IMG/VR virus record: IMGVR_UViG_3300038466_000012
Coordinates: 1 to 41,602 of that record
Reading direction: 5' to 3' (one strand)
DNA: 41,602 nucleotides
Source of the DNA: a virus
Notes under the pieces: model-generated
The model's database searches: none
What the model was told of the DNA's origin: nothing
What the model saw: the letters and a program-made list of their open reading frames with translations, nothing else
Made by a program: the position numbers and the translations under genes
In this document: piece after piece, positions 2,398 through 41,602 of the stretch
Layout of the letters: each line of letters starts with the position of its first letter
How positions within the stretch are numbered: position 1 is the stretch's first letter

Positions 2398-2415
2398 CTG
2401 CGGCAGGAGTTGACG

Positions 2416-7935: not shown

Positions 7936-10068
7936 ATGGATAAAGAGCAACTCATAAAGCCGGATAAGACAAAGGACAGCGGCATTGCATTCAAAGTCCT
8001 CGACACAAAAGCCGAGGACAAGTGGATCATCGAGGGATACGCTTCGACGCCTGACCTCGATTCCTACAAAGAGATTGTCTTGCCATCGGCCTTCGCCGAG
8101 GGGATGCCCAAGTACGACAAATTCCCGATTGTGCTGGTCAATCATCTGTGGGGCACGAAGCCGGTCGGTCAGGTTGTTTCGTGGGAAATCCAGGACAAAG
8201 GTCTATGGGTCAAAGTCGAAATATCCAAGACGACCGAGGGGCGCGATGTTTGGACGCTGATCCAGGACGGGGTACTCAAGGCGTTTTCGATTGGCTTCTA
8301 TCTCCAGCAATCAGAAGCGGATGAAGAAACTGGAGTAACCACGCTGACGAAGGTGCAGCTGGTCGAGTTATCGATTGTCAATGTCCCGGCGAACACGCAG
8401 GCGTTGTTTGCATCGGCGAAGATGCTGGGCTTAAAGTCGTTTGCCAACTATAAAACGAGTGAACCACCTAACACGCAAGGGGAGGCCGCAATGGACCTCG
8501 AAGAAATCAAAAAAGAAGTGAAAACTGCGGTTGACGCCAAAACGATTGACGTGACCGCGAAAGCAGCGGAGGCGGTCGGCGCAGTCGTTGAGCCGAAGAT
8601 CACGGCGATGAAGGAGACCATCGACACGCTGATTGCCAACGCGAAGCAGGCCGCCGAGTCGTGCGCGACGAAAGCGGAGCAGGCCGAACTCGTGGCGAAA
8701 CTTACCGCCGTCGAAGAAAAGCTGCACCTGGTCGATGAGCAACAGCGCAAGGCCGTACACGCCGACGGGCCGCAGTACAAAGCCGACGTGCTGATGAGCG
8801 AAGAGGCCACGACCCACAAACTCAATCGGATCAACCCGGACTACGGCAAGGCGCTGTTCACGCCGAGCCGGATGTTCAGCGGGACGCTGGCCGAAAAGCA
8901 TCGGGCGTTTTGCGAGGCCCATGACAATCTGGCGTTTCTGCACGCGATGCTCGACGGGATGAAGAAGCACTCGCGCGGCTTTAACTACCCCGGTCCGGAG
9001 AAGCTGAAATCGTTTGCCGAATGGGAAGGGCGCCGGGAAGCGTTGTTCGGCAAGGCGATGTCCAGCACTACCGGCTACGGCGGCGAGTTGATCCCGAGCG
9101 ATCTATCGGCTAACCTGACCGAGAAGATCGAGCTGGCGGCAATTGTCACGCCGATGTTCGAGGAAATCCAACTGCCGACGAAAGTGTACACCGTGCCGTT
9201 TGTGGGCACACGCCCGACGGTCTACAATTTCGACGAACAGACTGGCGACTTCGCGACCGAAGCGCGCAAGAGCACACCGACCACGGGCAGCAATACCATG
9301 ACGGCAAAGGGCTTCGCCGTCGCAACTAATTGCTCGGTCGAGGAAACCGAGGATTCAATCATCCCGGTATTGGGGATGATCCAGAACACCTTCATTCGGG
9401 CCTGGGCCGAGGCGATGGACGACGCCATTGTCAATGGTGACAAGACCACGGTTCACCGCGATACAGGGTTCACCACGACCGGGTATTCGACGCTGTTGAC
9501 TGCGGACGTGCGGCGCAACTTTGACGGGCTGCGGCACCAGGCGAACGCCGACAGTGCGGAGTACGATTGCAAGACGGCAACCGCCCTACCGAATACTGCG
9601 GACTTTGAGTTAGCAGATTTCGTCAAGGTCTTGCAACTGATGGGGCCAGCGGCACAGCCGGAACGGTACAACGATCTGTTCATTCTGATGTCATTGGCGC
9701 GGTTCTGGACGCTGATGTTGTTTGATGAACATCGGACGGTTGACAAATTCGGAATGAGCGCGGCCAACGTTGCCGGTCCGATTATGCGCGTCCTGGGGAT
9801 TCCGGTTTACGCGACGTCGTATCTGCGCAACGATTACACGAGCGCGGGCTTGTACACCGGCACCGGTACGGCCAGCGTGTTCTTGATCGTCAACAAGACG
9901 CTGCATAAACGCGGTTCCAAGCGCACGTTTACGATTGAGAGCCAGAAGAACATCCTGACGCAGCAATTCGAGTTGGTCGGGACGGCGCGGAAATCGTTCG
10001 ACCTGTTGCGCACGGCCTCGACTGAAATCCCGGTCGGCGCGGGGATCAATGTCCCGACGACCATCTAA
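7936..10068 (+). CDS. Prohead protease (S78/HK97-type) fused to a scaffold-like coiled coil and an HK97-fold major capsid protein
   Basis: aa 1-165 follow the prohead-protease pattern (..IEGYASTPDLDSYKEIV..FSIGF..ELSIVNVPAN). aa ~185-280 form an Ala/Glu/Lys-rich coiled coil (delta-domain-like). The rest shows the capsid pattern (GYGGELIPSDLS..). Confidence 0.85.
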   Translation: MDKEQLIKPDKTKDSGIAFKVLDTKAEDKWIIEGYASTPDLDSYKEIVLPSAFAEGMPKYDKFPIVLVNHLWGTKPVGQVVSWEIQDKGLWVKVEISKTTEGRDVWTLIQDGVLKAFSIGFYLQQSEADEETGVTTLTKVQLVELSIVNVPANTQALFASAKMLGLKSFANYKTSEPPNTQGEAAMDLEEIKKEVKTAVDAKTIDVTAKAAEAVGAVVEPKITAMKETIDTLIANAKQAAESCATKAEQAELVAKLTAVEEKLHLVDEQQRKAVHADGPQYKADVLMSEEATTHKLNRINPDYGKALFTPSRMFSGTLAEKHRAFCEAHDNLAFLHAMLDGMKKHSRGFNYPGPEKLKSFAEWEGRREALFGKAMSSTTGYGGELIPSDLSANLTEKIELAAIVTPMFEEIQLPTKVYTVPFVGTRPTVYNFDEQTGDFATEARKSTPTTGSNTMTAKGFAVATNCSVEETEDSIIPVLGMIQNTFIRAWAEAMDDAIVNGDKTTVHRDTGFTTTGYSTLLTADVRRNFDGLRHQANADSAEYDCKTATALPNTADFELADFVKVLQLMGPAAQPERYNDLFILMSLARFWTLMLFDEHRTVDKFGMSAANVAGPIMRVLGIPVYATSYLRNDYTSAGLYTGTGTASVFLIVNKTLHKRGSKRTFTIESQKNILTQQFELVGTARKSFDLLRTASTEIPVGAGINVPTTI

Positions 10069-10662: not shown

Positions 10663-10959
10663 ATGTTTGGATTACCCTTGAACAACCTGCAGCTGCGGTG
10701 CGGAATGGCAACGGGCGGCGCTGCATTGGCAAACCTGGCCCTGACGACCTACGACCGGGCAGGGTCTACCGATACGGTCAGCATCACGTCCAGCGATACA
10801 ATCCTTGCTGCATGGCACGTATCGACGGCGGCCGCAGTGGCAACGATTGCGGATATCACGTCGGAAGTCTCTGTCCCGGCAACGGGCTATGTTGAATGCA
10901 GTACAACCGACACGACCAGTGACCAGTTGATCGTGTTCTGGCACGATAACACCATTTAA
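10663..10959 (+). CDS. Hypothetical head-region protein
   Basis: 98-aa ORF preceded by AAAGGAGAGG. Confidence 0.6.
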   Translation: MFGLPLNNLQLRCGMATGGAALANLALTTYDRAGSTDTVSITSSDTILAAWHVSTAAAVATIADITSEVSVPATGYVECSTTDTTSDQLIVFWHDNTI

Positions 10960-10973
10960 CCCGGAGGTGAGTG

Positions 10974-11201
10974 ATGCAGATAGTATTCAATCCCTCCGGC
11001 CCGAGTCATGAATTTAAGGCGTTGGTCGGCCCCGGCTATGTGGAGTGTCACGTAGCCGGGCCGGTCGAGGTGACTCCGGAACAGGCGGCGATCCTGCTGG
11101 CGCAGTACCCGAAAAACTTTGCGGCCAAAGCCGAACCGGGGCCGCCGGCAAATAAGGCCGAGCCGAAACCGCCGAAGAACAAAGCGGGGGGAGGTCGATA
11201 A
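10974..11201 (+). CDS. Hypothetical small protein with a Pro/Lys-rich repeated tail
   Basis: ATG at 10974 lies 6 nt after GGAGG. The C-terminus is KAEPGPPANKAEPKPPKNK (two 9-aa units). Confidence 0.55.
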   Translation: MQIVFNPSGPSHEFKALVGPGYVECHVAGPVEVTPEQAAILLAQYPKNFAAKAEPGPPANKAEPKPPKNKAGGGR

Positions 11202-11581
11202 TGCCTTCGACAACTGGCTCCTGGATCAGCGAAGCAATCCCGACAGCGACGACCTGGACGCTGGTCGGCGACGTGCGGAATGCGGTCTACGCCTACGATA
11301 AGCTGATTATCACGGCACGGTGTGTAACTGCCCCGGCCTCGGGCAACATGAGCGTCAAAGTCCAGCACTCGGCCAACTACAACGACGTGGAGTCCAGCGC
11401 GGCCGCGTGGGAGGATTTGGCTGATTTGGGGTCATATGATTCGGCAGGGGCGGGAACGCAGAAGACGGTGATGCTCGAAGATTTTCATTCGGTCATTCGG
11501 ATCGTGGCGATTAATTCGGTGGCGTCGATGTCGCCGGTTTTGTCGGTGTACATTCGCGAAAAACAATTCGGAGCTGATTAA
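11201..11581 (+). CDS. Head-region small protein, paralogue A
   Basis: 126 aa. It shares PASG..KVQxSxNY.D....AAAW.DL......IRIVA.NSVA with the next gene. ATGs overlap the stops at both ends. Confidence 0.7.
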   Translation: MPSTTGSWISEAIPTATTWTLVGDVRNAVYAYDKLIITARCVTAPASGNMSVKVQHSANYNDVESSAAAWEDLADLGSYDSAGAGTQKTVMLEDFHSVIRIVAINSVASMSPVLSVYIREKQFGAD

Positions 11582-11994
11582 TGGGAAGCAGCAGCGGCGG
11601 AAGTAGCGGGACAACCGTCCCCTGGGTCGATCAGACTGCCCAGACGTCGAATGGGGGGGCGACATATGTCCAGCACGGCAACCCCATAGACGTGGGGGCC
11701 GCCTCGAAGTTGGCGATCTTCCTGCACGTGATAAATGGCCCGGCGTCGGGAACGACGACGATCAAGGTGCAGGAGTCGCCCAACTATGGCGATGACGGCG
11801 TAACTGATGCTGCGGCGGCATGGATTGACCTGAAATCATTTTCGGCGGTCAATTTGGCGAGTACGGGGACGTGGCAAAAGATGCAAATCCCTGACGGGAC
11901 GATCTACAGTTTTGGTCAGTGGATTCGGATCGTGGCGACAAATTCAGTCGCCGGTCAAACGTGTTTATTCGAGGTCAAGCTGGTCGGGTATTGA
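11581..11994 (+). CDS. Head-region small protein, paralogue B
   Basis: 137 aa, a tandem paralogue of 11201..11581 with the same motif string (see above). Confidence 0.7.
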   Translation: MGSSSGGSSGTTVPWVDQTAQTSNGGATYVQHGNPIDVGAASKLAIFLHVINGPASGTTTIKVQESPNYGDDGVTDAAAAWIDLKSFSAVNLASTGTWQKMQIPDGTIYSFGQWIRIVATNSVAGQTCLFEVKLVGY

Positions 11995-11995
11995 T

Positions 11996-12565
11996 ATGGC
12001 CAATAGGCAGCTATTCACAGTCGAAGAGGCGCGTCCGTTTCTCGACTTGGAGGATGACTCTGAGGACGACCTGATTTCGCTTATTATCGACAGCGTGACG
12101 CGGCAGATCGAGAACTACTGTAATTGCACCTTTGAGGTCGGCGGGGTGACGTACAGCGAGACGTACGACGGCAACAATGGCGTGACGCTGTACCTAAACC
12201 ATGCGCCGATTATCTCCGTATCGTCTGTGGTGATAACCGACTCCTCGGACGTTGCCGAGACCATTGCCGCCGCTGACTACAAAATCTATTCGTCTGTGGG
12301 CAAGATCGTCTTGACCGAAGGTGACACGTTTGTCTCCGGCGACCTGAATGTTGCCATAACCTACGTAGCCGGGGAATCGACATTGCCTCCTGATGTAAAG
12401 TTTGCCGGTCTCAAGCTGGCACGGTGGTACAAGCGCAAGTGGACGGACAACCGGGACGGCATATCATCGGTGACGGTCGAGGGGCAGACGACCAGTTATG
12501 AAACGGGCATCCCGGAGGACATTAAGCGGATGCTCAACCAGTATCGCGTTCCGGCGTTCGGGTGA
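11996..12565 (+). CDS. Head-tail connector/adaptor (gp6-like)
   Basis: ATG at 11996, in frame within track ORF 11912... N-terminus ..FTVEEARPFLDLEDDSEDDLISLIIDSVTRQIENYCN.. is typical of gp6-like adaptors. Confidence 0.65.
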   Translation: MANRQLFTVEEARPFLDLEDDSEDDLISLIIDSVTRQIENYCNCTFEVGGVTYSETYDGNNGVTLYLNHAPIISVSSVVITDSSDVAETIAAADYKIYSSVGKIVLTEGDTFVSGDLNVAITYVAGESTLPPDVKFAGLKLARWYKRKWTDNRDGISSVTVEGQTTSYETGIPEDIKRMLNQYRVPAFG

Positions 12566-13035
12566 GTGGGAATGTGTTCGATCTCAAATTGTCAATCGAC
12601 GGGAATAAGCGGGGGTCGATCAAACTCGCTAAGTTTGGGCGTGAGAAAATCCCGAACCTCAAACGCGGGATCGACCGGGGTACGTCGCGGCTCGAACGCA
12701 CGATCAAAGAGAAAAAGCTGTCGGGGCAGGTGTTGAATGTACGGACTGGATTGCTGCGATCCTCATGGCATACTACTCCAGCGCGGTATCAGCCGGGAGT
12801 TGGAGTGTCCGGGCAGGTCGGAACCAATGTCAAATACGCGCGGGTGCATGAATATGGCATGGTCATCAAAGCCAAAAACTTTCCTTTCATGCGGTTTCGC
12901 ACCGCTGACGGGGCCTGGCATATGGTAAAGCAAGTTACCATTCCCGCGCGCCCGTCCGCGGGCCCGGCCATGCGCGAGGACCGGGATGCGATTGCCAGTG
13001 ACATTATCGCCGAAATGATGAGGCCGCTTAAATGA
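12562..13035 (+). CDS. HK97 gp10-like neck/tail-completion protein
   Basis: GTGA overlap start. It carries the ..VGTNVKYARVHEYG.. motif characteristic of the HK97 gp10 family. Confidence 0.6.
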   Translation: MSGNVFDLKLSIDGNKRGSIKLAKFGREKIPNLKRGIDRGTSRLERTIKEKKLSGQVLNVRTGLLRSSWHTTPARYQPGVGVSGQVGTNVKYARVHEYGMVIKAKNFPFMRFRTADGAWHMVKQVTIPARPSAGPAMREDRDAIASDIIAEMMRPLK

Positions 13036-13454
13036 GTGTCAGGGATACCATACTCGCCAACCTGGAAACTGCGCTGCAATCTGTCTCCGGGGTAAGCAAG
13101 GTTAGCCGGGACTTCAAGGAATATCCCTGCCCGAGCGCAACGTGGTATCCGGCGCTTTTCATTGCCGATGACGGCGGGGATGAAATAACCAACTACTGCG
13201 ACAACAGTAAGGCGCAATGCACGATGCTTATTCTTGTTGCCGGGTATTATCATCGGGCGGCAAACCTGTCGGCGGGGTTTAATGAGTTCCTCGAAAACAC
13301 GATCAATGCGATTTATGCGCCGGTCTCGCTCGGCTCGTACGCGCGGGACTGCACTATCGTTTCGGTAAACCCGATTGTGACGATCCCGTCGGAGAACGCG
13401 GCATTGTTCTATATGCACTTGGCAATCAAATACTGGCGGACGCTGGGGGCATAA
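13032..13454 (+). CDS. Putative neck / tail-terminator protein
   Basis: 140 aa with an ATGA overlap. The call rests on position between the gp10-like gene and the tail tube gene; no motif recognised. Confidence 0.5.
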   Translation: MSVRDTILANLETALQSVSGVSKVSRDFKEYPCPSATWYPALFIADDGGDEITNYCDNSKAQCTMLILVAGYYHRAANLSAGFNEFLENTINAIYAPVSLGSYARDCTIVSVNPIVTIPSENAALFYMHLAIKYWRTLGA

Positions 13455-23944: not shown

Positions 23945-24528
23945 AGAAGCTCTTGCTGCTGTTGTTCCTGCTGGTGCCGTCGGTCGCCGGGGCGGAGGTG
24001 TTCGGGAAGCAGACCGTGGAAACTGCCGGGCGATTGTCGATTGAAGCGACAACGTGTTGGGGATCGTTTCATTGGTATGATGCTTCAGGTAAGCAGCTTG
24101 ACAGCTTGACCGTTTACATACAGAACGAGAGCGTGGCGCGGAATATTCGCGTTGCTTTATTCAAGCGGACTTCTTCGACGACGTGGACGCTGGTTGACTC
24201 CGCTATTGAGAAAAGCGTTCCGGTTGATACTGATTGGGTTTCATTCCCGGCAGTCAACAATGCGATATTAGAAAACGGTTGTTATCGTATTCAAGCATGG
24301 GCACAAGCGGGGACAAACGGTATCTACGTTGTCTATGGCACGGGGTCGGCTTTAACAGACTCGGTGACGAGTGTCGCATTCAGTGGGTATGATGGATATA
24401 ACTGGCCTGCTACGTTGTCCGTTGGCACGCCGTATTATTACGACATTTCAGCATACGCAACAATATCAGTTCCGCCGGAAGGATCAACGAGTTCACGTCG
24501 TCGTCGGATAATCGGAGGTTCACAATGA
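23941..24528 (+). CDS. Secreted 195-aa beta-rich protein
   Basis: Signal peptide MKKLLLLLFLLVPSVAGA|EV. ATGA overlaps at both ends. Confidence 0.6.
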   Translation: MKKLLLLLFLLVPSVAGAEVFGKQTVETAGRLSIEATTCWGSFHWYDASGKQLDSLTVYIQNESVARNIRVALFKRTSSTTWTLVDSAIEKSVPVDTDWVSFPAVNNAILENGCYRIQAWAQAGTNGIYVVYGTGSALTDSVTSVAFSGYDGYNWPATLSVGTPYYYDISAYATISVPPEGSTSSRRRRIIGGSQ

Positions 24529-27500
24529 ACGAGTATACAAAGGTCAAAATAATCATCGCCGTTTTGATTACGGGGATATTGCTGTGTGTCTTGCCGTTTG
24601 CCTGCAATCAGGCAAGGGCCGGAATCCATAACAACAGTGCGGCAGATTCAGGGGAAGATACTGTTACGGTGACTTTCTCCCTGTTGGATACATTGGGCCA
24701 ACCGACACTTGCGGTAACGGGTGATTCTGCAATCATCTTTTACTTGAATCCCACGGGGGCAAAAAGCGACTCTATGAGAATAGATATTGCCGCCAGCGCA
24801 ACGACGACGAAAACACTTCTCGGCGGAAAAACAATTATTACGTATACCTATCCTCAATTGGTCGCTAATATTGATGATATTTGTGCGACTTGCAATGGTG
24901 TGTGGCGGTGGAAGGTATATGCCATTGACGAAGATTTAGATTTGGTGAGCTATTTTACCGACGAGTTCCAAGTCAACACAGGGTGGAATTTATCCGACTC
25001 GGCCATTGTTGACGGGTCGAGTTTTGCGTCATTGGACAACGCGATTGACGTGGGAGTCCTTGCTCAAAACTGTATCGGCACAGACGAAACAGGAGCGGGT
25101 TGTATAGATAGCTTCGCAATATCCTTCAACGCAAAGGTGGCCCTTGCCAATTTTATTTTTGGCTTTAACGACACCACGAAATTAGACACGTCTAAATTTG
25201 GTGCGTGGTTAAAGACAAACATCGGTACGCCGGGGCAAATATGGGGAGCGAACGACACCGGGGTCGTGGACACATCCAAGATCGGCGCTTGGCTGAAAAC
25301 AAACATCGGGACTCCGGGGCAGATATTCGGCACAAACGACACGTCGATCATCGACACGTCGAAACTCGGAGAATGGTTGGCATCGAATATGTCTATCGAT
25401 ACCGATGAGTTGACCGCCAAGGTCGATACCAACGTGTGGGAAACAAAGCAGGTTTACAACACTCTCTCCGCCGAGGACTGGACGAATCACTTTTTCCAGT
25501 ACGACGACGGGATATTGTTCTCCAACTGCGATACGATTACCGACTGGACATTTGAGCATGGCGGCAACGGGCGCATTGACGAAGAATACACCTTCAAAAA
25601 AGAAGGTGACGCCGGGGTCCATATCTGGACTGGCGACGGCGACACGGCGGTAATTTATACCACGTTGCCGACGTACTCGACAGGACGCCCACGGATACCG
25701 CACTTGTCAAATATCACCTTTGATTTGTACATCGACACGAATACCTTCTATCGGTCGCCGCGCTGCGTGAGCTACGCTGACAGCGCGTCAAGTCTACATT
25801 ATCTCAAAGTGATGCTGAGCCGCAATCTTGAGGACGGGCCGTTCAACACGACGACCGGCGGGTTTATGCAATACCTATTCCTCGATCAATCACTTGTTTC
25901 CGGTTGGCAGACTGTGACGGTGCCGGTACAGGGCATGGCTGAAATCGGTGACGCGGATTCATGCGATATTGATTTGGCGAATAAATATATCGGGTTCGAG
26001 GTCGGTGTTGATGGTGCTGGTGATTCGGTTTCAATCGTCATTGACAATATCAGGTTCAATGAGCGCGGACGAGCTAAGGTGATCTTCCGTTATGATGACG
26101 GCCTGATAAGTCAGTATACTCGTGCTTGGCCGTTGCATCGGAAATATCACCAGCGGGCAGCGTTTGCCGTGCGCGGCAATGACATATTGGGTGTTGGCGC
26201 AACAGACATGCACAAAGCCGAATTGGATGAAATTTATGCTGGCGGCAATGATATCATCAACCACGGGTGGAACGCACTGGCGCTTATCGACGTGACAGAT
26301 TCCACTGCGCGGATTGGAATTGACAAGGGGCAGCAGGTATTGCTTGATCTTGGCTACCCTCGTGGGGCGGGAGTATTCGCGCACGCGTCAAATTCGATTG
26401 ACACTATCGGGCTGAGGATCGTAAAGGAAAATCACCAGTTTGCTTGTGGCGGGCGGAACTCAATTCACCGGGGGCACGTTGATGTTATCACCGACCCGAC
26501 CGCCGATGAATTGTACAACTTCCCATACGTGTATATGGAGTATTCTGAGTCGGAAACAATGGACAGATACCGCCGGATGATTGACACGGCGATCATGCAG
26601 GGGAGCTTGTTGATCTTGTCCATGCACGACATTTGCAGTGCGGACAGTGCCAACGGGTCAGATGGTGCAGATATTTCAACGAACGTCGATTCGCTTGACG
26701 CCTTGTTGAGTTACGTCTATGACCTCCGGGCCAGCATCGACGTGACGACGTTCTCCGAGTATTTCAGTCACCAGCGTACATGGTCGGCGCAGTTGAATAC
26801 CATTGAGGATAACACAGATGAACTGAAGGACTCTGTGAAAACCCTCGACAACTGGATATGGGCGTTACGTGATTCGCTTGCTCTGGCCTACGCCGACCTC
26901 GACGCGATAGCCGATGGTGAAGTTGCTGACGGCGCATTGGATTTCGGCGGGGAGATTGACACTACCGGTCTGGGCGCGGCACCGTGGGCGCACGGCACGA
27001 AGGCCCTGACTGATAAATCCGGGTTCGCCCTGACCACCCAGGACTGGACGACCGATGCGGACTTGTTTTTGACTGCTGCCGGGGAAGATTCACTCTCGGT
27101 CCTTGTGAATAAGTTGATCTTACAATTGGACAGCGATTCCTTGCAAACATTGATGCAGGCGGTTATTGCCGGGGCGATTGCCGGAGATTCCGATGGGACG
27201 GCAATTCAGCGGCTTGCTTGGCTATGCCAGCAGGAGTATATCGACAGTGCAGGTCTTGTGGCCGGGGTGTGGGATGTAGATTCCTCGGCAGCGTTTGTCC
27301 TTGCCGGGGGAACAACGGCGACACTGTTGACACGGGCGGCAGCAGGGGGGGCGGCGGCATCATCACCCTGGACGGTTGCTGGTGTTGATTCGATGATTGA
27401 TATGTCGCTCGTTGTTGCAAAAGAGGCATCGGTAACGGCAGTACGCGATTCAATGGACGAAGCGGCGCAAGTTGCCGACGTGTCCGCTCTCGCGCTCGAA

Positions 27501-29600
27501 GCGTCCATAACCGCCATCCGAGATAGTTTGGACGAATGTGTGACCGCAGATGTTTCCGCTCTCGCGCTTGAGGCCAGTGTGACGGCTGTTCGGGACAGCA
27601 TGGATGAGGCCGCACAGGTAGCGACCGGCTTCTCCACTCACTCGGCGGCTGACGTGTGGGCGGTCGGGACGCGGACGTTGACCGCACTCGATGAGGACGC
27701 GACGACCATTGACTTGAATGCGACGGCTGTTGGGTCGGTGGCTGGCGGCGTTGGGTCGGTGACGGGGAGCGTCTTGGGTAATGTCAATGGGTCGGTCGGA
27801 TCGGTGACGGGGAATGTAGGCGGATCAGTCGCGTCGGTAACCGGAGCGGTTGGTTCCGTGACCGGAAATGTCGGCGGAAACGTAACCGGTTCCGTTGGGT
27901 CAGTTGTTGCAGCAGTTAATGTCGGATCGGTCAGTGGCAGCACACCGGCAGCGGATACTCTCGAATTGCGGATGTTGCGCAAGGCGCCGATATCCGGCGT
28001 AACCGAAGGAGTTGATCTTAAAGTTGCTTCCCCCGGATATGTTGGTGTAAATTGGGGAGATATCTATCTGCCGTCGTCCACAGTTTCTTTATCAAACACA
28101 ACAATAAAGGCGGTGGCCGAATTGTCCGCAACGTATCATCCTGGAGCAATTGCGGCCCACGTGCACGATACTCTAAATGCTCGCGCCGATGTCCCGGTGA
28201 ATGCTACGCAAATCAGCGGCAGTGCTGCGGCGGCGGATTCGGTTGAGCGTCAAATTCTTACCGGCAGAATTTTGGCCGACGTAAAGGCCCTCGACGGTGA
28301 CACGCTATCACTCGAAGATTTGAAGGATTTCGCCGACGACGGCTATGACCCGGCGGGCGATACGGTGCATACCGACATTGCGCTGGCCGGGAGTCTGATT
28401 ATCAGCGACGCTGATATGGGCCACGTTGCCGATTCGGTCTGGCAGAAGAACCGAAATGACGTAACAAAAAATGATGGGATGTATGGGAAATTGCTGGACA
28501 CCACCACCACGTCACGGGCAACGACCGGCACCAGTGTAACCGATGCAGATATGGTTGCCATTGCCGATACAATCCTCAATCGCAAGAGCTACCAGCAGAC
28601 CGACACGACAACCGTCGGCGGTCGGATTCATGCGTTGGGCGATTCGTTAATCAGTCAGGAGTGGGCGACCGCTGGGGCAACCGACGTGAGCGACGGGGAT
28701 ATGATTGCCATTGCGGATACCGTGCTCGGCCGCAAGGCGCACCAAAAAACGGATACGTCTACCGTCGGCGGGATCATCCATGCCATAGGTGATTCACTTA
28801 TCAGCCAAGAGTGGGCCACGTCCGGCGCGTCGGCGATCAGTGATGCAGACATTATTGCAATCGCCGATACTGTACTCAATCGCAAGAGTCATCAGCACGA
28901 TGACACCACGACTATCGGCGGTAAAATTCACGCGATGGGCGACTCCCTGAGTACGCAACTATGGGCAGGGTCATCGTACGGCAGCGGGCTACAGGTGGAC
29001 AGCATTTTCGTCTACGATTCATCCGGGACGGATACCCCGGTTCCCGGCGTTTCGGTCACGATCAAAAACGCGGGGATGACCGCCGACGTGGACTATGGGA
29101 TCAACACCAATTCGTCGGGCTATGTGACCTACAACCTCAATGCCAGCACAGCGTACAAGGGCGTATGTGCGGCACCCGGATACACGTTCCCGGTCTCAAG
29201 TTTCACCACGGGGGCCGGGGCGACCAACAACGATACCGTTTGGGGGTACAATATCACCGTCAGCGCACCGGATGACGCCGATCTCAAACGGATTTACGGC
29301 TGGATCAAGGACCTGTCGGACAGGGCACTGTCCGGGGCGATTGTCTCGCTTTCCCTCGACGTGCCGCATGATTCGATCCCGTGCCTGACCGGGACGGGCG
29401 TCACGGTCTACCGCACGGCAGTCCTCGACACGACCGACGCCAACGGATACTGGCAGCTGGATATCTATCCGACCGACGCGCTCACTCCGGCGGCCTGTAC
29501 CTATCAGTATCGGGCGACGTATAACAACGAGTATTTGCGGTGGCACAAGAAAACATTCTCGCCGACGGGGACAACATCACAACCGATCACGGACTATTGA
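24525..29600 (+). CDS. Giant 1691-aa repeat-rich fibre/surface protein with N-terminal anchor, CE4 polysaccharide-deacetylase-like core and C-terminal carboxypeptidase-regulatory-like beta-sandwiches
   Basis: N-terminus KIIIAVLITGILLCVLPFAC. NodB-like motifs are VIFRYDDGLISQY, INHGWN and LLILSMHD (nt ~26070-26640). There are four internal tandem-repeat blocks. The C-terminus has ..VPGVSVTIKN..NSSGYVTYNL.. and ..GAIVSLSL..DANGYWQLDIY... Confidence 0.75.
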   Translation: MNEYTKVKIIIAVLITGILLCVLPFACNQARAGIHNNSAADSGEDTVTVTFSLLDTLGQPTLAVTGDSAIIFYLNPTGAKSDSMRIDIAASATTTKTLLGGKTIITYTYPQLVANIDDICATCNGVWRWKVYAIDEDLDLVSYFTDEFQVNTGWNLSDSAIVDGSSFASLDNAIDVGVLAQNCIGTDETGAGCIDSFAISFNAKVALANFIFGFNDTTKLDTSKFGAWLKTNIGTPGQIWGANDTGVVDTSKIGAWLKTNIGTPGQIFGTNDTSIIDTSKLGEWLASNMSIDTDELTAKVDTNVWETKQVYNTLSAEDWTNHFFQYDDGILFSNCDTITDWTFEHGGNGRIDEEYTFKKEGDAGVHIWTGDGDTAVIYTTLPTYSTGRPRIPHLSNITFDLYIDTNTFYRSPRCVSYADSASSLHYLKVMLSRNLEDGPFNTTTGGFMQYLFLDQSLVSGWQTVTVPVQGMAEIGDADSCDIDLANKYIGFEVGVDGAGDSVSIVIDNIRFNERGRAKVIFRYDDGLISQYTRAWPLHRKYHQRAAFAVRGNDILGVGATDMHKAELDEIYAGGNDIINHGWNALALIDVTDSTARIGIDKGQQVLLDLGYPRGAGVFAHASNSIDTIGLRIVKENHQFACGGRNSIHRGHVDVITDPTADELYNFPYVYMEYSESETMDRYRRMIDTAIMQGSLLILSMHDICSADSANGSDGADISTNVDSLDALLSYVYDLRASIDVTTFSEYFSHQRTWSAQLNTIEDNTDELKDSVKTLDNWIWALRDSLALAYADLDAIADGEVADGALDFGGEIDTTGLGAAPWAHGTKALTDKSGFALTTQDWTTDADLFLTAAGEDSLSVLVNKLILQLDSDSLQTLMQAVIAGAIAGDSDGTAIQRLAWLCQQEYIDSAGLVAGVWDVDSSAAFVLAGGTTATLLTRAAAGGAAASSPWTVAGVDSMIDMSLVVAKEASVTAVRDSMDEAAQVADVSALALEASITAIRDSLDECVTADVSALALEASVTAVRDSMDEAAQVATGFSTHSAADVWAVGTRTLTALDEDATTIDLNATAVGSVAGGVGSVTGSVLGNVNGSVGSVTGNVGGSVASVTGAVGSVTGNVGGNVTGSVGSVVAAVNVGSVSGSTPAADTLELRMLRKAPISGVTEGVDLKVASPGYVGVNWGDIYLPSSTVSLSNTTIKAVAELSATYHPGAIAAHVHDTLNARADVPVNATQISGSAAAADSVERQILTGRILADVKALDGDTLSLEDLKDFADDGYDPAGDTVHTDIALAGSLIISDADMGHVADSVWQKNRNDVTKNDGMYGKLLDTTTTSRATTGTSVTDADMVAIADTILNRKSYQQTDTTTVGGRIHALGDSLISQEWATAGATDVSDGDMIAIADTVLGRKAHQKTDTSTVGGIIHAIGDSLISQEWATSGASAISDADIIAIADTVLNRKSHQHDDTTTIGGKIHAMGDSLSTQLWAGSSYGSGLQVDSIFVYDSSGTDTPVPGVSVTIKNAGMTADVDYGINTNSSGYVTYNLNASTAYKGVCAAPGYTFPVSSFTTGAGATNNDTVWGYNITVSAPDDADLKRIYGWIKDLSDRALSGAIVSLSLDVPHDSIPCLTGTGVTVYRTAVLDTTDANGYWQLDIYPTDALTPAACTYQYRATYNNEYLRWHKKTFSPTGTTSQPITDY
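25185..25391 (+). repeat. In-frame 84-bp (28-aa) tandem repeat, about 2.5 copies
   Basis: DTSKFGAWLKTNIGTPGQIWGANDTGVV / DTSKIGAWLKTNIGTPGQIFGTNDTSII / DTSKLGEWLASNM, starting at 25185, 25269 and 25353. The copies differ mostly at synonymous positions. Confidence 0.9.
27423..27623 (+). repeat. In-frame 72-75-bp tandem repeat, about 2.7 copies
   Basis: EASVTAVRDSMDEAAQVADVSALAL / EASITAIRDSLDECVTADVSALAL / EASVTAVRDSMDEAAQVA. Confidence 0.9.
27727..27946 (+). repeat. Low-complexity Gly/Ser/Val/Asn repeat (GSVTGNVGG-like nonamers)
   Basis: VGSVAGGVGSVTGSVLGNVNGSVGSVTGNVGGSVASVTGAVGSVTGNVGGNVTGSVGSV... Confidence 0.85.
28404..28980 (+). repeat. In-frame ~150-bp (45-50-aa) tandem repeat, 4 copies
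   Basis: Units start at 28404, 28539, 28689 and 28839. Consensus: (S/T)D(A/G)DM(I/V)AIADT(I/V)L(N/G)RK.HQ..DT(T/S)T(V/I)GG.IHA.GDSLISQEWAT.GA. Confidence 0.9.
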
Positions 29601-29601
29601 G

Positions 29602-29994
29602 ATGGGCGACCTGAGTAAAAACTTTGCGACCAGTGAGTTTCGCTGTCATTGCGGGTGTGAGCGGATGCAGGCCGATCCGCGCCTGCTGGCCGGGCTGGAG
29701 AAATTGCGCTCATTCATCCAGCGGCCGATCACAATCAACAGCGGGTTCCGTTGCCCGGCGCACAATGCAACTGTGGGTGGGGCGGCCAACAGTCAGCACG
29801 TGCTCGGGCGCGCGGCGGATATCACCGCTGAAAACTACACTCCATCGGAGCTATTTGTCGTCGCCGAGCACGTTCTCGAATTTCGCAATGGCGGGATCGG
29901 TATCTACCCGCTCGATGGATTTCTCCACGTCGATGTCCGGCAGGGGCGCGCGCGGTGGGGCTTGGATAAATTACTGAAAACGAAGGAGGTTTGA
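29602..29994 (+). CDS. Endolysin, peptidase M15 (zinc D-Ala-D-Ala carboxypeptidase-like) family
   Basis: Motifs SGFRCPAHN, SQHVLGRAADI and GFLHVD. No signal peptide. The gene starts 1 nt after the fibre gene stop. Confidence 0.85.
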   Translation: MGDLSKNFATSEFRCHCGCERMQADPRLLAGLEKLRSFIQRPITINSGFRCPAHNATVGGAANSQHVLGRAADITAENYTPSELFVVAEHVLEFRNGGIGIYPLDGFLHVDVRQGRARWGLDKLLKTKEV

Positions 29995-30204
29995 ATGAGC
30001 AAACTCCCGACCGATTCAGTCACGTTGATCGGGCTGATTGTGGTCTGTGCCAGTTTCGTCATCCCGCTGTGCATGGGAGTGACGGTCGCAGACCTGAAGG
30101 AGCTGGGCTTGGTCCTCAGTCCAGTCATCACTGGTTTTTTCACCTACCGGGGGTCAAAAATGACGCAAAACGGCAACGGAACAAAACCGCAGGAGGTAAA
30201 GTGA
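29995..30204 (+). CDS. Holin, two transmembrane segments
   Basis: 69 aa with TM1 VTLIGLIVVCASFVIPLCMGV, TM2 LGLVLSPVITGFFTY and a charged C-terminus. RBS GGAGG. It directly follows the endolysin (TGAATG). Confidence 0.7.
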   Translation: MSKLPTDSVTLIGLIVVCASFVIPLCMGVTVADLKELGLVLSPVITGFFTYRGSKMTQNGNGTKPQEVK

Positions 30205-30734
30205 AACCATTAAAGATCATCTTACTGGCCGCGATCCTGGCGGCCCTGATGTATCCCAACTGCATGGCGCAATGGGTTGCCGAACCGTCGGCGGTTGTCG
30301 GCGGCGCATTCATGGGCTTCGACCATAAAGTCCCCTACGGCGCGACGAAATACAGTTGGTTCGGTTTTTTCACGGCGGTCAAAACTGCCGAGGTCATCGA
30401 CGGGCGTATCTGGTGGTACAACGGCATCCAATATGGCAACGCGATATACCCCGGCGCCGCGGATAATTGGGGCGGCAATGCCCGGCTGGTATTCAAGGGA
30501 CGCTGGCCGGGATCGTATTTCTGGATCAGCTCCGGCTGGTATGATCACATTGCCGAAAAGGGAACTGATTACGAGTCCGGCCTGACGGTGTACGCCGGCG
30601 GATCCTACGATCTCGGCTCCGGGTTTAACCTGATGGGCGAGTACGGCTGGTCGGACCGGGGACCGGCGTTTCATTCCGAGGTCAAAATCGGCGTCGGTCT
30701 GGACGCCTGGGATTTGCTCAAAAAGAAAAAATGA
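30201..30734 (+). CDS. Exported aromatic/Gly-rich beta-strand protein (outer-membrane-barrel-like)
   Basis: GTG at 30201 follows GGAGG and overlaps the holin stop (GTGA). Signal peptide KIILLAAILAALMYPNCMA|QW. Alternating patterns such as GLTVYAGGSYDLGSGFNLMGEYGWS are present. There is no canonical lipobox and no terminal aromatic residue. Confidence 0.55.
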   Translation: MKPLKIILLAAILAALMYPNCMAQWVAEPSAVVGGAFMGFDHKVPYGATKYSWFGFFTAVKTAEVIDGRIWWYNGIQYGNAIYPGAADNWGGNARLVFKGRWPGSYFWISSGWYDHIAEKGTDYESGLTVYAGGSYDLGSGFNLMGEYGWSDRGPAFHSEVKIGVGLDAWDLLKKKK

Positions 30735-30742
30735 GGTGAGCC

Positions 30743-30952
30743 ATGAAATACGTTTTGATCGGGCTGATAATCGCGGCGGTGTTGATCGTGATCCGTGGCG
30801 CTGGCGGGGATGACCAGCCGCAGTTGTCGCAGCAGATTGAATTGCAGGGACCGCAGCAGGTAATGCAGCTCGTATTGATTCCCGACGGGGACGCCGTGCC
30901 GTTTTGCAGTCCGCTCCGGGGCTGTGTCGGAGGCCATTGGGAGCTGCTATGA
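30743..30952 (+). CDS. Small N-terminally anchored membrane protein
   Basis: 69 aa with TM YVLIGLIIAAVLIVI. RBS GAGGTGAG. An ATGA overlap joins it to the patatin gene. Confidence 0.55.
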   Translation: MKYVLIGLIIAAVLIVIRGAGGDDQPQLSQQIELQGPQQVMQLVLIPDGDAVPFCSPLRGCVGGHWELL

Positions 30953-31761
30953 GGGCACTGGTATTGTCCGGCGGCGGGGCGAAAGGCGCGTTCGAAGCCG
31001 GGGTATGTCTGGAGCTGGCCGCGGCCGGCCGGGACTACGACCTGATCGTCGGGGTTTCGACCGGCGCGCTGGCCGCAGTAGTGCTCGGCCAGGATACGTT
31101 TGCCGAGGCCGCCGAGCGGTTGCGCGCCCACTACCAGGCGATCCGGGGGCCGTCCGACGTATACCATTCCCGCTCGTTGTGGGGCAAAATCCGGGGCGGG
31201 CTATACTCCCCGGCGCCGCTCCGCAAAAAGATCGAGACCGAGGTTGCCCGTGGGAAATGGCAGCGGCAGGTGGCCGTGGGCGTGGTCGATATGCGATCGG
31301 GGGAATTTAAGACCGTCGGCCCGGACGATCCCTGTTTCGTCGATTATGTGCTGGCCTCGTGCAGTTTCCCGCCATATTTTCCGCCGGTTAAAATCTGGGG
31401 GCGGCCATACATGGACGGCGGCCTGCGCAATATCGCGCCGCTGGCAACGGCGATACAGGCCGGGGCGTCGTACGTGGATATGATTCTGGCGAGTCCGGCG
31501 ACGGTCGACGAGTGGCCGGGGACCGGCTGGACGTGGGATATCGCGGGCCGGGCGATCACCGTCGCCGTCAACGAGGTCTACCGGGACGATATGACGTACA
31601 GCGGCTATGCGGATATCCTGAGGTACGAGCCGTCGGTCGCCGACTGGCGGCGGCTGTACGGCAACATCCCGTATATCGGCACGCTGGAGTTTGACCCGGC
31701 CCAGATACAGCGGGCGATTGAGTATGGCCGGATTGCCGGGCACAAAATTTTGAGCGTTTGA
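30949..31761 (+). CDS. Patatin-like phospholipase
   Basis: 270 aa. Oxyanion motif SGGGAKGAFEAG, nucleophile elbow GVSTG and catalytic Asp motif MDGGLRN are all present in the canonical order. No signal peptide. RBS GGGAG lies 5 nt upstream. Confidence 0.85.
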   Translation: MRALVLSGGGAKGAFEAGVCLELAAAGRDYDLIVGVSTGALAAVVLGQDTFAEAAERLRAHYQAIRGPSDVYHSRSLWGKIRGGLYSPAPLRKKIETEVARGKWQRQVAVGVVDMRSGEFKTVGPDDPCFVDYVLASCSFPPYFPPVKIWGRPYMDGGLRNIAPLATAIQAGASYVDMILASPATVDEWPGTGWTWDIAGRAITVAVNEVYRDDMTYSGYADILRYEPSVADWRRLYGNIPYIGTLEFDPAQIQRAIEYGRIAGHKILSV

Positions 31762-31795: not shown

Positions 31796-31832
31796 ACCCC
31801 GTCGGGCCGCATCCCCGACGGGGTTTTATTTT
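31796..31832 (+). terminator. Rho-independent terminator ending the late/lysis operon
   Basis: ACCCCGTCGGG (31796-31806), loop CCGCAT, CCCCGACGGGGT (31813-31824), then TTTATTTT. Confidence 0.8.
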
Positions 31833-31943
31833 GCCCGGCGGCTGCGCCCGCTTGCGACTGCGCGACGATAATTTCCCCGGCGACCACAGGGCCAATAAAA
31901 AGATCGTCGCTGTACGGGCATTTCTCGCGGTTTTTGGGCTGGT

Positions 31944-31970
31944 CAACCGTTAAGGATTTCTTAATGGTTG
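31944..31970. promoter_or_regulatory. 11-bp inverted repeat, candidate operator
   Basis: CAACCGTTAAG-GATTT-CTTAATGGTTG with one mismatch. It lies ~70 nt upstream of the early promoter in a 360-nt non-coding gap. Confidence 0.45.
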
Positions 31971-32003
31971 CAAGTCTGTGCGTTGTAAATGCTTGGTGGG
32001 AAA

Positions 32004-32065
32004 TTGAAAATAAATTGAAAAAATATTGAAAAAAAGCTTGACAAATGTTAAACTAATCGTATCTT
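32004..32065 (+). promoter_or_regulatory. Early promoter with phased A-tract/TTGAAAA upstream element
   Basis: TTGAAAA occurs at 32004, 32015 and 32026 (11-bp phasing). TTGACA (32038-32043) is followed by a 16-nt spacer and TATCTT (32060-32065). The first early gene starts at 32122. Confidence 0.6.
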
Positions 32066-32121
32066 GCGGTCGATAAAAATAGCAGGCCGCGGCAATAACG
32101 CCGGGGCAGAACGGGGGAAAA

Positions 32122-32451
32122 ATGAACATCACAATCACAACCGAGCACTCGGCCAGTAGCTACGGCAAGCCGGTCATCCTGATCGACGGCGAGGTTGCCG
32201 ATCAAACCGCAGGCGTGACCGCCGTGTACGAGGCGATCAAATGCGTGCCGATCGACGGTTTTTTGGGCCTGCCGACCACGCTGGCCGAGCAGCATGACCC
32301 GGCAGCGTATGTCAAGATGGCCAACGCGGCCTACGCGCAGTATGATAATTTACAAGCGGCGGTCCGTGCCCTTGCTCTCCGCCGTGGTGTTGCCCCAGAG
32401 GACGCCACTGCGGCCGATTTTTTGCTCATGGATTTTTTGGCGGCGATCTAA
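32122..32451 (+). CDS. Hypothetical first early protein
   Basis: 109 aa, RBS GGGGGA. It is the first ORF after the early promoter. Confidence 0.6.
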   Translation: MNITITTEHSASSYGKPVILIDGEVADQTAGVTAVYEAIKCVPIDGFLGLPTTLAEQHDPAAYVKMANAAYAQYDNLQAAVRALALRRGVAPEDATAADFLLMDFLAAI

Positions 32452-32530
32452 CCCCGGCGACACAACGGCGGGGGTGGGTGTCCCCGGCGCCTGCCCCGCC
32501 GCGCCGGGAGAACATAGGAGAAAAAAAGAT

Positions 32531-32731
32531 ATGGGACTGAAATTTGATGGGCACTTGGTGAAAAACGGAAACTCGACCTACATCCTGTTGCCACAATGGC
32601 TGGTGCGGCAACTGGCAATCGACGCGGACACCATGTCGTTTGTCGGCGACGCGGCCCAGTGGGATTCCGGCGTGATTAATTTGCGGATATCCATTGTCTC
32701 CGACCCGCCGAAAACTGATGACGAAAAATGA
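32531..32731 (+). CDS. AbrB/MazE/SpoVT-type DNA-binding protein
   Basis: 66 aa. MGLKFDGHLVKNGNSTYILLPQWLVRQLAID fits the swapped-hairpin AbrB pattern. RBS AGGAG. ATG at 32531 is in frame within track ORF 32294... Confidence 0.6.
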   Translation: MGLKFDGHLVKNGNSTYILLPQWLVRQLAIDADTMSFVGDAAQWDSGVINLRISIVSDPPKTDDEK

Positions 32732-32892
32732 CAGCGGAAAACAACGACCGACGTTTTGAGAAAGGAGGCCCTCCCGAAAAACCAAACGTGCGCGGGAACA
32801 AACAACGAACCAAAGCCCTTTCTATTGTTGCATTGCAGAACCCATATCCCGCGCACCGAAATCATTCCCGGCCCGACGCCGGATCACGATAG
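32728..32892 (+). CDS. Possible small basic protein (54 aa)
   Basis: Hand-translated ORF with an ATGA overlap onto the AbrB-like stop. It is below the track length cut-off, and its composition is not strongly protein-like. Confidence 0.25.
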   Translation: MTAENNDRRFEKGGPPEKPNVRGNKQRTKALSIVALQNPYPAHRNHSRPDAGSR

Positions 32893-32900
32893 GAGATAAC

Positions 32901-33029
32901 ATGCGCAACACAATCACGCACTGGTTGGATTTGCCGCCGAACAAACTCACAGCGGAACTCCGCAGGGCACTGGCGGAGAAGCTGCGGCTTTTCCGGCTGG
33001 AAAAGAAAAGAACGGAACGCAAAAAATAA
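32901..33029 (+). CDS. Possible small helical basic protein (42 aa)
   Basis: Hand-translated: MRNTITHWLDLPPNKLTAELRRALAEKLRLFRLEKKRTERKK. RBS TAGGAG lies 6 nt upstream. Confidence 0.35.
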   Translation: MRNTITHWLDLPPNKLTAELRRALAEKLRLFRLEKKRTERKK

Positions 33030-33068
33030 ACCCCGACCCGATTGCGGGGCCAGGGTAAGGAGAACTGA

Positions 33069-33431
33069 ATGTCGAACGATAATAATGAAACCGGGCAGGA
33101 CGTGTCAAGGCCAAAAACAAACGCCTACACGATTTATCTGGCGCGCGAACTGGCAGAATACCTGCCGCTCTCGCTACACGATTTATTGAATCAATTCGGC
33201 GCGGTGCAATTCCTGACTATGTGCCGACTGCACGACCGGCCTCTCGGCGACCTCGGCGGGCGGGACCTCGTCGGGTTTGCCGTCGATCACGGCGTGGACC
33301 TCCGGCAGGTGGTGGAGTGGAACGCGAAACTGATCGTCGAGACCTACGCGCCGGACGGCGTTCTGCCCGACGGCATGATCCTGAGCAATATCGCCTGCCT
33401 CGATGCGCGGGATTTTTGCGAGAGAGAATGA
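33069..33431 (+). CDS. Hypothetical protein
   Basis: 120 aa, RBS AAGGAG. Confidence 0.6.
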   Translation: MSNDNNETGQDVSRPKTNAYTIYLARELAEYLPLSLHDLLNQFGAVQFLTMCRLHDRPLGDLGGRDLVGFAVDHGVDLRQVVEWNAKLIVETYAPDGVLPDGMILSNIACLDARDFCERE

Positions 33432-41168: not shown

Positions 41169-41602
41169 ATGAAGCCGAATAGTGGATACATCAGGATAAA
41201 GGTCGAGGAAGTGTTGTTGCCGATCTTCGCTAAGGGATTGCTCAACCATCGTGAGCAGCGGGTTGTCTGGGCTGTAATTGCCGATTCATGGCGGTGGTCG
41301 GGCCAGCAGTATACTCAGAGGCCGATTACGTTGGGGCGTATTAGTGAGGCGACCGGGATTAACCGGTCCGACATTTCTCGGACATGGCGCGGCCTAATCG
41401 AGAGAAAGATTGTCATATTAGACGACAGAAATTGCGCCTCTTTTAACGAACATTATGAGCAATGGACTGTTGGCGAATCACCAACACCCACTGTTGGCGA
41501 ATCACCAACACCCACTGTTGGCGAATCACCAACACCCTGTTGGCGAATCACCAACACCCTGTTGGCGAATCACCAACACCCTGTTGGCGAATCACCAACA
41601 CC
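41169..41602 (+). CDS. Replication initiator, lambda O-like, N-terminal winged-helix part (open at window end; continues at nt 1)
   Basis: ..YIRIKVEEVLLPIFAKGLLNHREQRVVWAVIADSWRWSGQQYTQRPITLGRISEATGINRSDISRTWRGLIERKIVI.. parallels the lambda O N-domain (..KRQFKVLLAILRKTYGWNKPMDRITDSQLSEIT..). The frame stays open through the repeats to nt 41602. Confidence 0.75.
   Translation, partial: MKPNSGYIRIKVEEVLLPIFAKGLLNHREQRVVWAVIADSWRWSGQQYTQRPITLGRISEATGINRSDISRTWRGLIERKIVILDDRNCASFNEHYEQWTVGESPTPTVGESPTPTVGESPTPCWRITNTLLANHQHPVGESPT
41468..41602. repeat. Iteron array, 6 copies of the same 22-bp unit with variable spacing
   Basis: Units at 41468-89 and 41492-513 are each followed by CA (24-bp spacing). 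By my reading, 41516-36 lacks one G (21 bp). Units at 41537-58, 41559-80 and 41581-602 are perfect. Confidence 0.9.

Follow-up and report, generated by a model that had tools for sequence, protein, structure and literature searches.

A compact patatin-like phospholipase closes a phage lysis cassette and is a candidate outer-membrane lipase

The window analysed here is the whole 41,602-nucleotide stretch of IMG/VR virus record IMGVR_UViG_3300038466_000012, which encodes a 270-amino-acid (aa) patatin-like phospholipase as the final cistron of a late operon of ~29 kb. The gene stands directly behind an endolysin, a holin-like protein, a predicted outer-membrane beta-barrel and a small transmembrane (TM) protein (Table 1), and it belongs to a known enzyme family, within which it represents a new and very small clade. 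We propose, with a probability of about 0.4, that the protein is a lipid hydrolase which, once released by the holin, attacks phospholipid of the outer membrane, a function resembling that of the LysB enzymes of mycobacteriophages.

Profile, motifs and fold all identify the protein as a genuine patatin-like phospholipase, with predicted enzymatic activity. A first-pass annotation, made from the nucleotide sequence, had read three catalytic signatures (GGGAKG, GVSTG and MDGG) in canonical order from the translation, and a search with the patatin profile agrees: Pfam PF01734 matches residues 4-168 with 99.5 bits (E 3.6e-28; gathering cut-off 27.7 bits) and is the sole domain found. The motifs comprise G8-G-G-A-K-G13 (oxyanion loop), G35-V-S37-T-G39 (nucleophile elbow) and M155-D156-G-G158, with Ser37 and Asp156 as the catalytic dyad, and all three are invariant across the five clade members. 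Within a 50-sequence alignment, G8/G9, G13, S37 and D156-G-G are invariant and G10 is at least 90% conserved, while K12 is not among the positions listed. Ratios of nonsynonymous to synonymous substitution rates (dN/dS) of 0.18-0.39 among the five clade genes, obtained at saturated dS, indicate purifying selection. An AlphaFold2 (AF2) model built on the 50-sequence alignment (predicted local distance difference test score (pLDDT) 92, predicted template-modelling score (pTM) 0.90) adopts the patatin alpha/beta/alpha fold, and Foldseek matched this model to PlpD, CapV, CapE and potato patatin (Pat17) with probability 1.0 and query TM-scores (TMq) of 0.64-0.77.

The same annotation had described a compact, phage-encoded protein, free of a signal peptide or extra domain, whose start overlaps the stop of a membrane-protein gene. 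Each of these points holds. Kyte-Doolittle analysis revealed no TM or signal segment, with hydropathy peaking at 1.46 in the strand of the nucleophile elbow, and the protein is short relative to bacterial homologues (median 294 aa), mainly through the absence of a ~20-residue loop after position 222. The ATG start (30949-30951) overlaps the TGA (30950-30952) of open reading frame (ORF) 30743..30952 as ATGA, and a Shine-Dalgarno-like GGGAG box lies 5 nt upstream of the ATG. Phage origin is evident from the large terminase, portal, protease-capsid fusion, tape measure and M15 endolysin encoded in the window.

Close relatives of this patatin are rare. The clade consists of five clusters among 5.8 billion clustered proteins, the four relatives sharing 68, 67, 55 and 46% identity with the window protein; all other matches are at most 39% identical, the nearest being bacterial 'NTE family' proteins at 31-39%. 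There was no matching PHROG family. Only 10 of 50,697 phage records from cultured phages contain a patatin match, each below 35% identity, and no prophage carrying a member of the clade was found among 185,579 GTDB species genomes, where the best match was 34% identical (Nitrospirota).

The genes preceding the patatin bear on its possible function. The M15 endolysin lacks a signal or signal-arrest-release (SAR) segment (maximum hydropathy 0.84), so holin-dependent release is predicted. The holin-like protein encoded next has no family match in Pfam, PHROG or NCBIfam, and positional counterparts of 60-69 aa lie 3' of the endolysin in the comparison loci L001, L008, L096, L097 and L100. The following gene begins with a GTG that overlaps the holin-like gene's stop and encodes a protein for which the AF2 model consists of a signal helix and eight antiparallel strands; Foldseek matched this model to the barrels of Ail, OmpX, NspA, OmpA (TM) and OprF with probability 1.0. 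Because the cassette encodes this predicted outer-membrane barrel, the model implies a host with an outer membrane, which appears to be a classical diderm. The barrel itself may be a further lysis factor with an outer-membrane target, so far uncharacterised, or else a moron of the Lom type. Its family comprises only six clusters among the 5.8 billion proteins, always following an endolysin gene and a 60-69-aa TM gene on phage contigs.

No credible spanin was detected in the cassette by a scan for lipobox ORFs in all frames. The sole lipobox candidate in the cassette, an alternative-frame ORF nested in the endolysin gene (29624-29977), was rejected, as it is not conserved in the L096 endolysin. 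The TM protein immediately upstream of the patatin is short for a spanin and absent from the L001 clade; its homologues are a 67-aa protein 5' of the patatin in L008 and a 73-aa protein 5' of a 194-aa protein in P0128/L183.

A strong intrinsic terminator 3' of the patatin gene closes the late/lysis operon, and GC-rich hairpins with T-runs also follow the patatin in L001, L008 and L007. No strong promoter was found for the patatin itself, the only nearby consensus match (9/12, 30743-30771) sitting inside the upstream TM gene. From this operon position we infer that the patatin is made late.

Table 1. Features of the patatin locus and related loci (positions refer to the window unless a locus is named)
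Feature	Position	Strand	Details
Tail fibre	24525-29600	+	1,691 aa, polysaccharide-deacetylase domain
M15 endolysin (Peptidase_M15_3)	29602-29994	+	130 aa; PF08291 80.6 bits; phrog_894 endolysin E 3.3e-36
Holin-like protein	29995-30204	+	69 aa; two hydrophobic segments, charged C-terminus; maximum Kyte-Doolittle 19-residue mean 2.63
Outer-membrane beta-barrel, predicted	30201-30734	+	177 aa, signal peptide; AF2 pLDDT 78; Foldseek
TM protein	30743-30952	+	69 aa; one N-terminal hydrophobic helix; maximum Kyte-Doolittle 19-residue mean 2.41
Patatin-like phospholipase	30949-31761	+	270 aa; Pfam, motifs, AF2 model, Foldseek
Intrinsic terminator	31796-31824	+	11-bp stem, 9 GC pairs, then TTTTATTTT
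Promoter-like site	32038-32065	+	early genes follow
194-202-aa family, L097	L097:1933-2523
194-202-aa family, L100	L100:3679-4287
194-202-aa family, L183	L183:959-1543

Comparison of gene order among the clade members supports a connection with lysis, since the patatin stands at the end of the lysis genes in four of the five. In L008 (patatin 68% identical), an NlpC/P60 endolysin, a 63-aa TM protein, a 179-aa barrel and a 67-aa TM protein precede the patatin. In L001-L005 (67%; phages of ~37 kb), the order is NlpC/P60-like endolysin, 62-aa TM protein, 177-aa secreted protein and patatin, followed by a convergent integrase. In L007 (55%), an NlpC/P60-like gene overlaps the patatin start and an integrase lies downstream. 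The terminal patatin, with an overlap of 1-4 nt or a gap of 2 nt, is thus kept in the NlpC/P60 relatives. The fifth member, L006 (46%), has its patatin 5' of a ParB-methyltransferase gene and packaging genes.

A comparison of the window with L001 shows conserved tail-fibre and patatin genes, whereas the intervening endolysin, holin-like and barrel genes display no similarity by tblastx, and the two barrels are linked only weakly, by a colinear hhalign profile match (probability 32%). In L001, a tyrosine integrase and two further reverse-strand genes (10814-13141) lie directly 3' of the patatin. No homologue of this integrase was found in the window by tblastx; positions 31825-33070 contain small ORFs and the promoter-like site. 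The window phage may be a non-integrating derivative. The gene order of endolysin, holin-like protein, outer-membrane barrel, TM protein and patatin, with no spanin, was not found in the open-access papers and preprints searched.

A second, unrelated IMG/VR phage lineage (L012-L014), whose patatins are 25-26% identical to that of the window, shows a similar arrangement, with the patatin overlapping a GH108 endolysin gene or lying within 900 bp of one. Patatins therefore recur beside three different endolysin types. In L012 (7501-10064), the GH108 endolysin overlaps the patatin start. L013 (5634-9349) encodes an alpha/beta hydrolase, the GH108 endolysin, three small genes, the patatin and an SNase-domain gene with a lipoprotein-like N-terminus, and L014 (1-2686) is the third patatin region of the lineage. 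With its GH108 endolysin, SNase-domain gene and, in L013, alpha/beta hydrolase, the patatin region of this lineage looks like a multi-enzyme lysis or exit region.

These observations can be assembled into a proposed mechanism. The patatin would be a soluble Ser-Asp lipid acyl hydrolase of the phospholipase A type with an intact active site, expressed late from the final, translationally coupled cistron of the lysis operon. Having no export signal, as is also the case for the M15 endolysin, the enzyme would remain cytoplasmic until holin action opened a way through the inner membrane. Once in the periplasm, it could hydrolyse glycerophospholipid of the inner leaflet of the outer membrane and of membrane remnants; the lysolipids and free fatty acids so released would weaken what is left of the envelope, its last layer. 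Such a step would equal the role of LysB in mycobacteriophages, or that of spanins and disruptin in other Gram-negative phages.

The likeness to LysB is functional and positional. Both are lipid-ester hydrolases with a GxSxG serine nucleophile, encoded in a cassette with endolysin and holin and free of a secretion signal (PMC7246905, PMC7022511). LysB is non-essential and acts on the outer lipid layer at the last step of lysis (PMC7246905, PMC7022511). In contrast to the patatin fold with its Ser-Asp dyad, LysB is a cutinase-like alpha/beta-hydrolase with a Ser-Asp-His triad, and its substrate is the mycolate-arabinogalactan ester of the mycomembrane; the patatin is accordingly not a LysB family member. 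Spanins (Rz/Rz1, gp11) and disruptin (phiKT gp28) occupy the same cassette position and carry out the step proposed here for the patatin, disruption of the outer membrane (PMC6139136; bioRxiv 10.1101/515445). Spanins fuse two membranes and disruptin is a cationic peptide; unlike the patatin, neither is an enzyme. The patatin, for its part, is neither an outer-membrane lipobox lipoprotein nor a type II inner-membrane coiled-coil protein, the forms by which spanins are recognised.

Phage WO of Wolbachia offers a published parallel in gene content, in that a patatin and a small holin-like membrane protein lie beside the tail module of this temperate phage and have a proposed lysis role (PMC9203015). 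In phage WO, the patatin is proposed to replace an endolysin in a host lacking detectable peptidoglycan, and an ankyrin-repeat protein is also present. The window cassette likewise places a patatin and a holin-like gene near a tail fibre, but it is of another type: a canonical endolysin (M15 in the window, NlpC/P60 in relatives) is encoded, and the patatin takes a spanin-like third position. None of the 10 patatin matches in the phage database came from a Wolbachia phage record.

Membership of better-known patatin subfamilies was also evaluated, given that the first-pass annotation had framed the protein in terms of CapV effectors and toxins. This framing did not survive as a statement of family. 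The CapV equivalog model NF041079 reached 48.5 bits against a cut-off of 200, aligning only to residues 2-170, and the RssA model NF007623 reached 20.6 bits against a cut-off of 272. CapV and CapE share the patatin fold, and CapV gave the top Foldseek E-value (TMq 0.75) and also shares the catalytic core; however, the phage protein is 60-90 aa shorter and, instead of the CD-NTase cyclase of a CapV operon, its neighbours are the endolysin, holin-like protein, barrel, TM protein and terminator. The ExoU/VipD toxins are multidomain proteins of more than 500 aa whose C-terminal domains serve membrane localisation or cofactor binding, as opposed to 270 aa and a single domain, and were poor structural matches (TMq 0.35-0.54, root-mean-square deviation 14-18 angstroms). 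Among solved structures, the best sequence match was the passenger of PlpD from Pseudomonas aeruginosa (E 1.7e-11), whose structure was also the one matched most completely (TM-score 0.79-0.82 when normalised on PlpD); both are compact catalytic domains of ~250 aa. PlpD is a type Vd autotransporter that possesses a signal peptide, POTRA domain and 16-stranded barrel for secretion, whereas the phage protein has none of these, and the eight-stranded barrel of the cassette is encoded by a separate gene. A barrel of eight strands is too small for a translocator role. As for the roles that the first-pass annotation had listed, that of a lysis accessory is now favoured because the gene closes the lysis cassette, a context that had been missed, and its decoy or counter-defence option retains one indirect hint, an Acb2/Tad1-like neighbour in L183.

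Several observations weigh against a role in lysis. There is no recognisable lysis gene near the L006 patatin, and in phage RM378 the patatin sits among replication genes. We had expected a general enrichment of endolysins beside viral patatins, and this was rejected by a survey of 33 non-redundant patatin homologues on IMG/VR contigs of less than 100 kb: among 128 neighbours (two genes on each side), endolysin-type Pfam families accounted for one, a Peptidase_M15_4, within the 25 most frequent of 47 families, beyond which a singleton match to another endolysin family is possible. Because neither the survey nor RM378 shows such an association, the linkage of patatin to lysis is lineage-specific, a property of a few lineages and not a general trait of viral patatins. 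The contexts of L010 and L011, which encode 35%-identical patatins, gave no PHROG matches. Furthermore, the slot 3' of the barrel, occupied by the patatin in the window, L008 and L001, is empty in L096, where a helix-turn-helix gene comes next; it holds a 196-aa protein overlapping the barrel stop in L097, and a RyR-domain protein plus a 202-aa protein in L100. Sister cassettes with the same core but without the patatin mean that it is dispensable for this cassette type. The integrase abuts the patatin in temperate relatives, and an integrase-adjacent site is a classic moron position. The patatin has the highest GC content (64.7%) and third-position GC content (GC3, 80%) of 19 genes measured, which could reflect recent acquisition. 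Finally, a phospholipase left unregulated in the cytoplasm could harm the inner membrane too early.

Taken together, these points are what one would expect if the patatin were exchangeable cargo, either a moron or an auxiliary gene, in the last slot of the late operon. It would then serve a purpose other than lysis, such as host-lipid remodelling or scavenging, lysogenic conversion or superinfection exclusion, and would be co-transcribed only because the boundary tolerates insertions. This main rival, only somewhat less probable in our view than the lysis reading, draws on the variability of the slot (patatin, 196-202-aa family, RyR-domain gene or nothing), its adjacency to the integrase, the extreme GC and GC3 values, the missing lysis link of L006 and most other viral patatins, and homology to ordinary bacterial 'NTE family' proteins, which come nearest to it at 31-39% identity; patatins of Burkholderia prophages have also been described as morons (PMC2920897). 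Cargo would be harder to reconcile with the lack of a strong promoter for the patatin alone, with a start that, in four genome variants, overlaps the preceding lysis gene or directly adjoins it, and with retention of the patatin where the adjacent lysis genes have been exchanged in mosaic fashion. Its independent recurrence beside a GH108 endolysin, and its persistence in the window phage, which has no homologue of the L001 integrase, likewise argue against cargo.

Two further explanations place the site of action elsewhere. The 69-aa TM protein and the patatin might work as a module in defence or counter-defence, either interfering with host membrane-targeting immunity, for example CBASS signalling of the CapV type, or mimicking it. 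In L183, the 65%-identical homologue of the TM protein lies directly 3' of a protein with an Acb2/Tad1 hairpin (376-684, + strand; 32 bits against a cut-off of 27), a family of anti-CBASS/anti-Thoeris sponges; CapV is among the top Foldseek matches, and PADLOC models of CBASS phospholipase effectors reach 50 bits. We nevertheless judge this very improbable, as these models align only to the core, the CapV equivalog falls far below its cut-off with just the generic catalytic core (aa 1-170) aligned, and PlpD matches equally well or better. Moreover, L183 has no patatin, a tblastn search with its Acb2-like protein returned no match in the window, no cyclase was seen in the flanking genes or in the ~20 larger ORFs scanned, and a pure decoy would fit poorly with an intact catalytic dyad under purifying selection. 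Alternatively, the patatin could attack the inner membrane from its cytoplasmic face and thereby kill the cell or time its lysis, with collapse of the proton-motive force triggering the holin. CapV-type patatins kill by degrading the inner membrane, the phage protein is cytoplasmic with no export signal, and its gene is coupled to that of a small inner-membrane protein, a partner that might either recruit or restrain the enzyme. That partner is absent from the L001 clade, however, and early membrane damage would cut burst size. We give this version little credence as well, bearing in mind that the sequence by itself does not distinguish it from the outer-membrane model.

The 196-aa and 202-aa proteins that replace the patatin in sister cassettes and the 194-aa protein of L183 are mutually homologous (29-35% identity, E 1e-12 to 1e-33), and the L183 gene is translationally coupled to the gene for the TM-protein homologue that shares 65% identity with the 69-aa protein of the window. 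Standing either behind the barrel or behind this TM homologue, the 194-202-aa family is a positional alternative to the patatin. The family matches no Pfam, PHROG or PDB sequence, and it features an invariant His followed by the invariant Cys of a VCS motif, together with a YD..EL motif; with His preceding Cys, a circularly permuted papain-like or NlpC/P60 enzyme might be a candidate, albeit a speculative one. These arrangements invite a broader proposal, which we rate as decidedly doubtful: spanin-less phages of an uncultured diderm would disrupt the outer membrane enzymatically by a holin-released patatin, possibly with the barrel and the 69-aa partner, and the unrelated 194-202-aa His/Cys family would be an analogous lipid-acting enzyme. 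Enzymatic disruption of this kind would constitute a fourth class after two-component spanins, unimolecular spanins and disruptin.

By one estimate (bioRxiv 10.1101/515445), spanins are missing from ~15% of Gram-negative phages, whose means of breaching the outer membrane is mostly unexplained; the cassette described here is a candidate enzymatic route. If the patatin does act in lysis as proposed, the LysB principle of a lipid esterase as third lysis component would extend from mycobacteria to classical diderms, and the patatin cassette proposed for phage WO would gain support. A small, soluble, cofactor-free membrane lipase could also be combined with endolysin-based antibacterials as the component that permeabilises the outer membrane. 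If the patatin is cargo instead, it is an ordinary accessory gene.

The wider genome provides context for the locus. Both ends of the contig are identical 88-nt blocks of a 22-nt tandem repeat, from which we conclude that the window is probably a complete, circularly assembled phage genome. The repeat arrays span positions 1-110 and 41471-41602, with the unit CTGTTGGCGAATCACCAACACC, each unit containing a GTTGG...CCAAC inverted repeat; lying just 5' of the ParB-methyltransferase and terminase genes, they could represent iterons, an origin or a pac-like site. The genome has a GC content of 54%, no tRNA genes were found in the window, and there was no nucleotide match among the 50,697 GenBank phage records; the portal protein is less than 29% identical to that of any cultured phage. 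Besides the hallmark genes, the window encodes a Sak4-like protein and a fusion of ParB_N with an N6/N4 DNA methyltransferase (2410-3708, + strand), directly 5' of the terminase gene; the same fusion occurs in L006 (3106-4353), just 3' of the divergent patatin. A single 710-aa ORF (7936-10068, + strand) resembles head-maturation protease families over aa 12-268 as well as families of major head proteins, and appears to be a protease-capsid fusion. In the tail-fibre-like protein, the polysaccharide-deacetylase domain spans aa 516-608, and three repeat copies with a 150-nt period lie at 28542-28945; L001 has a shorter homologue (1,314 aa) with the same polysaccharide-deacetylase domain.

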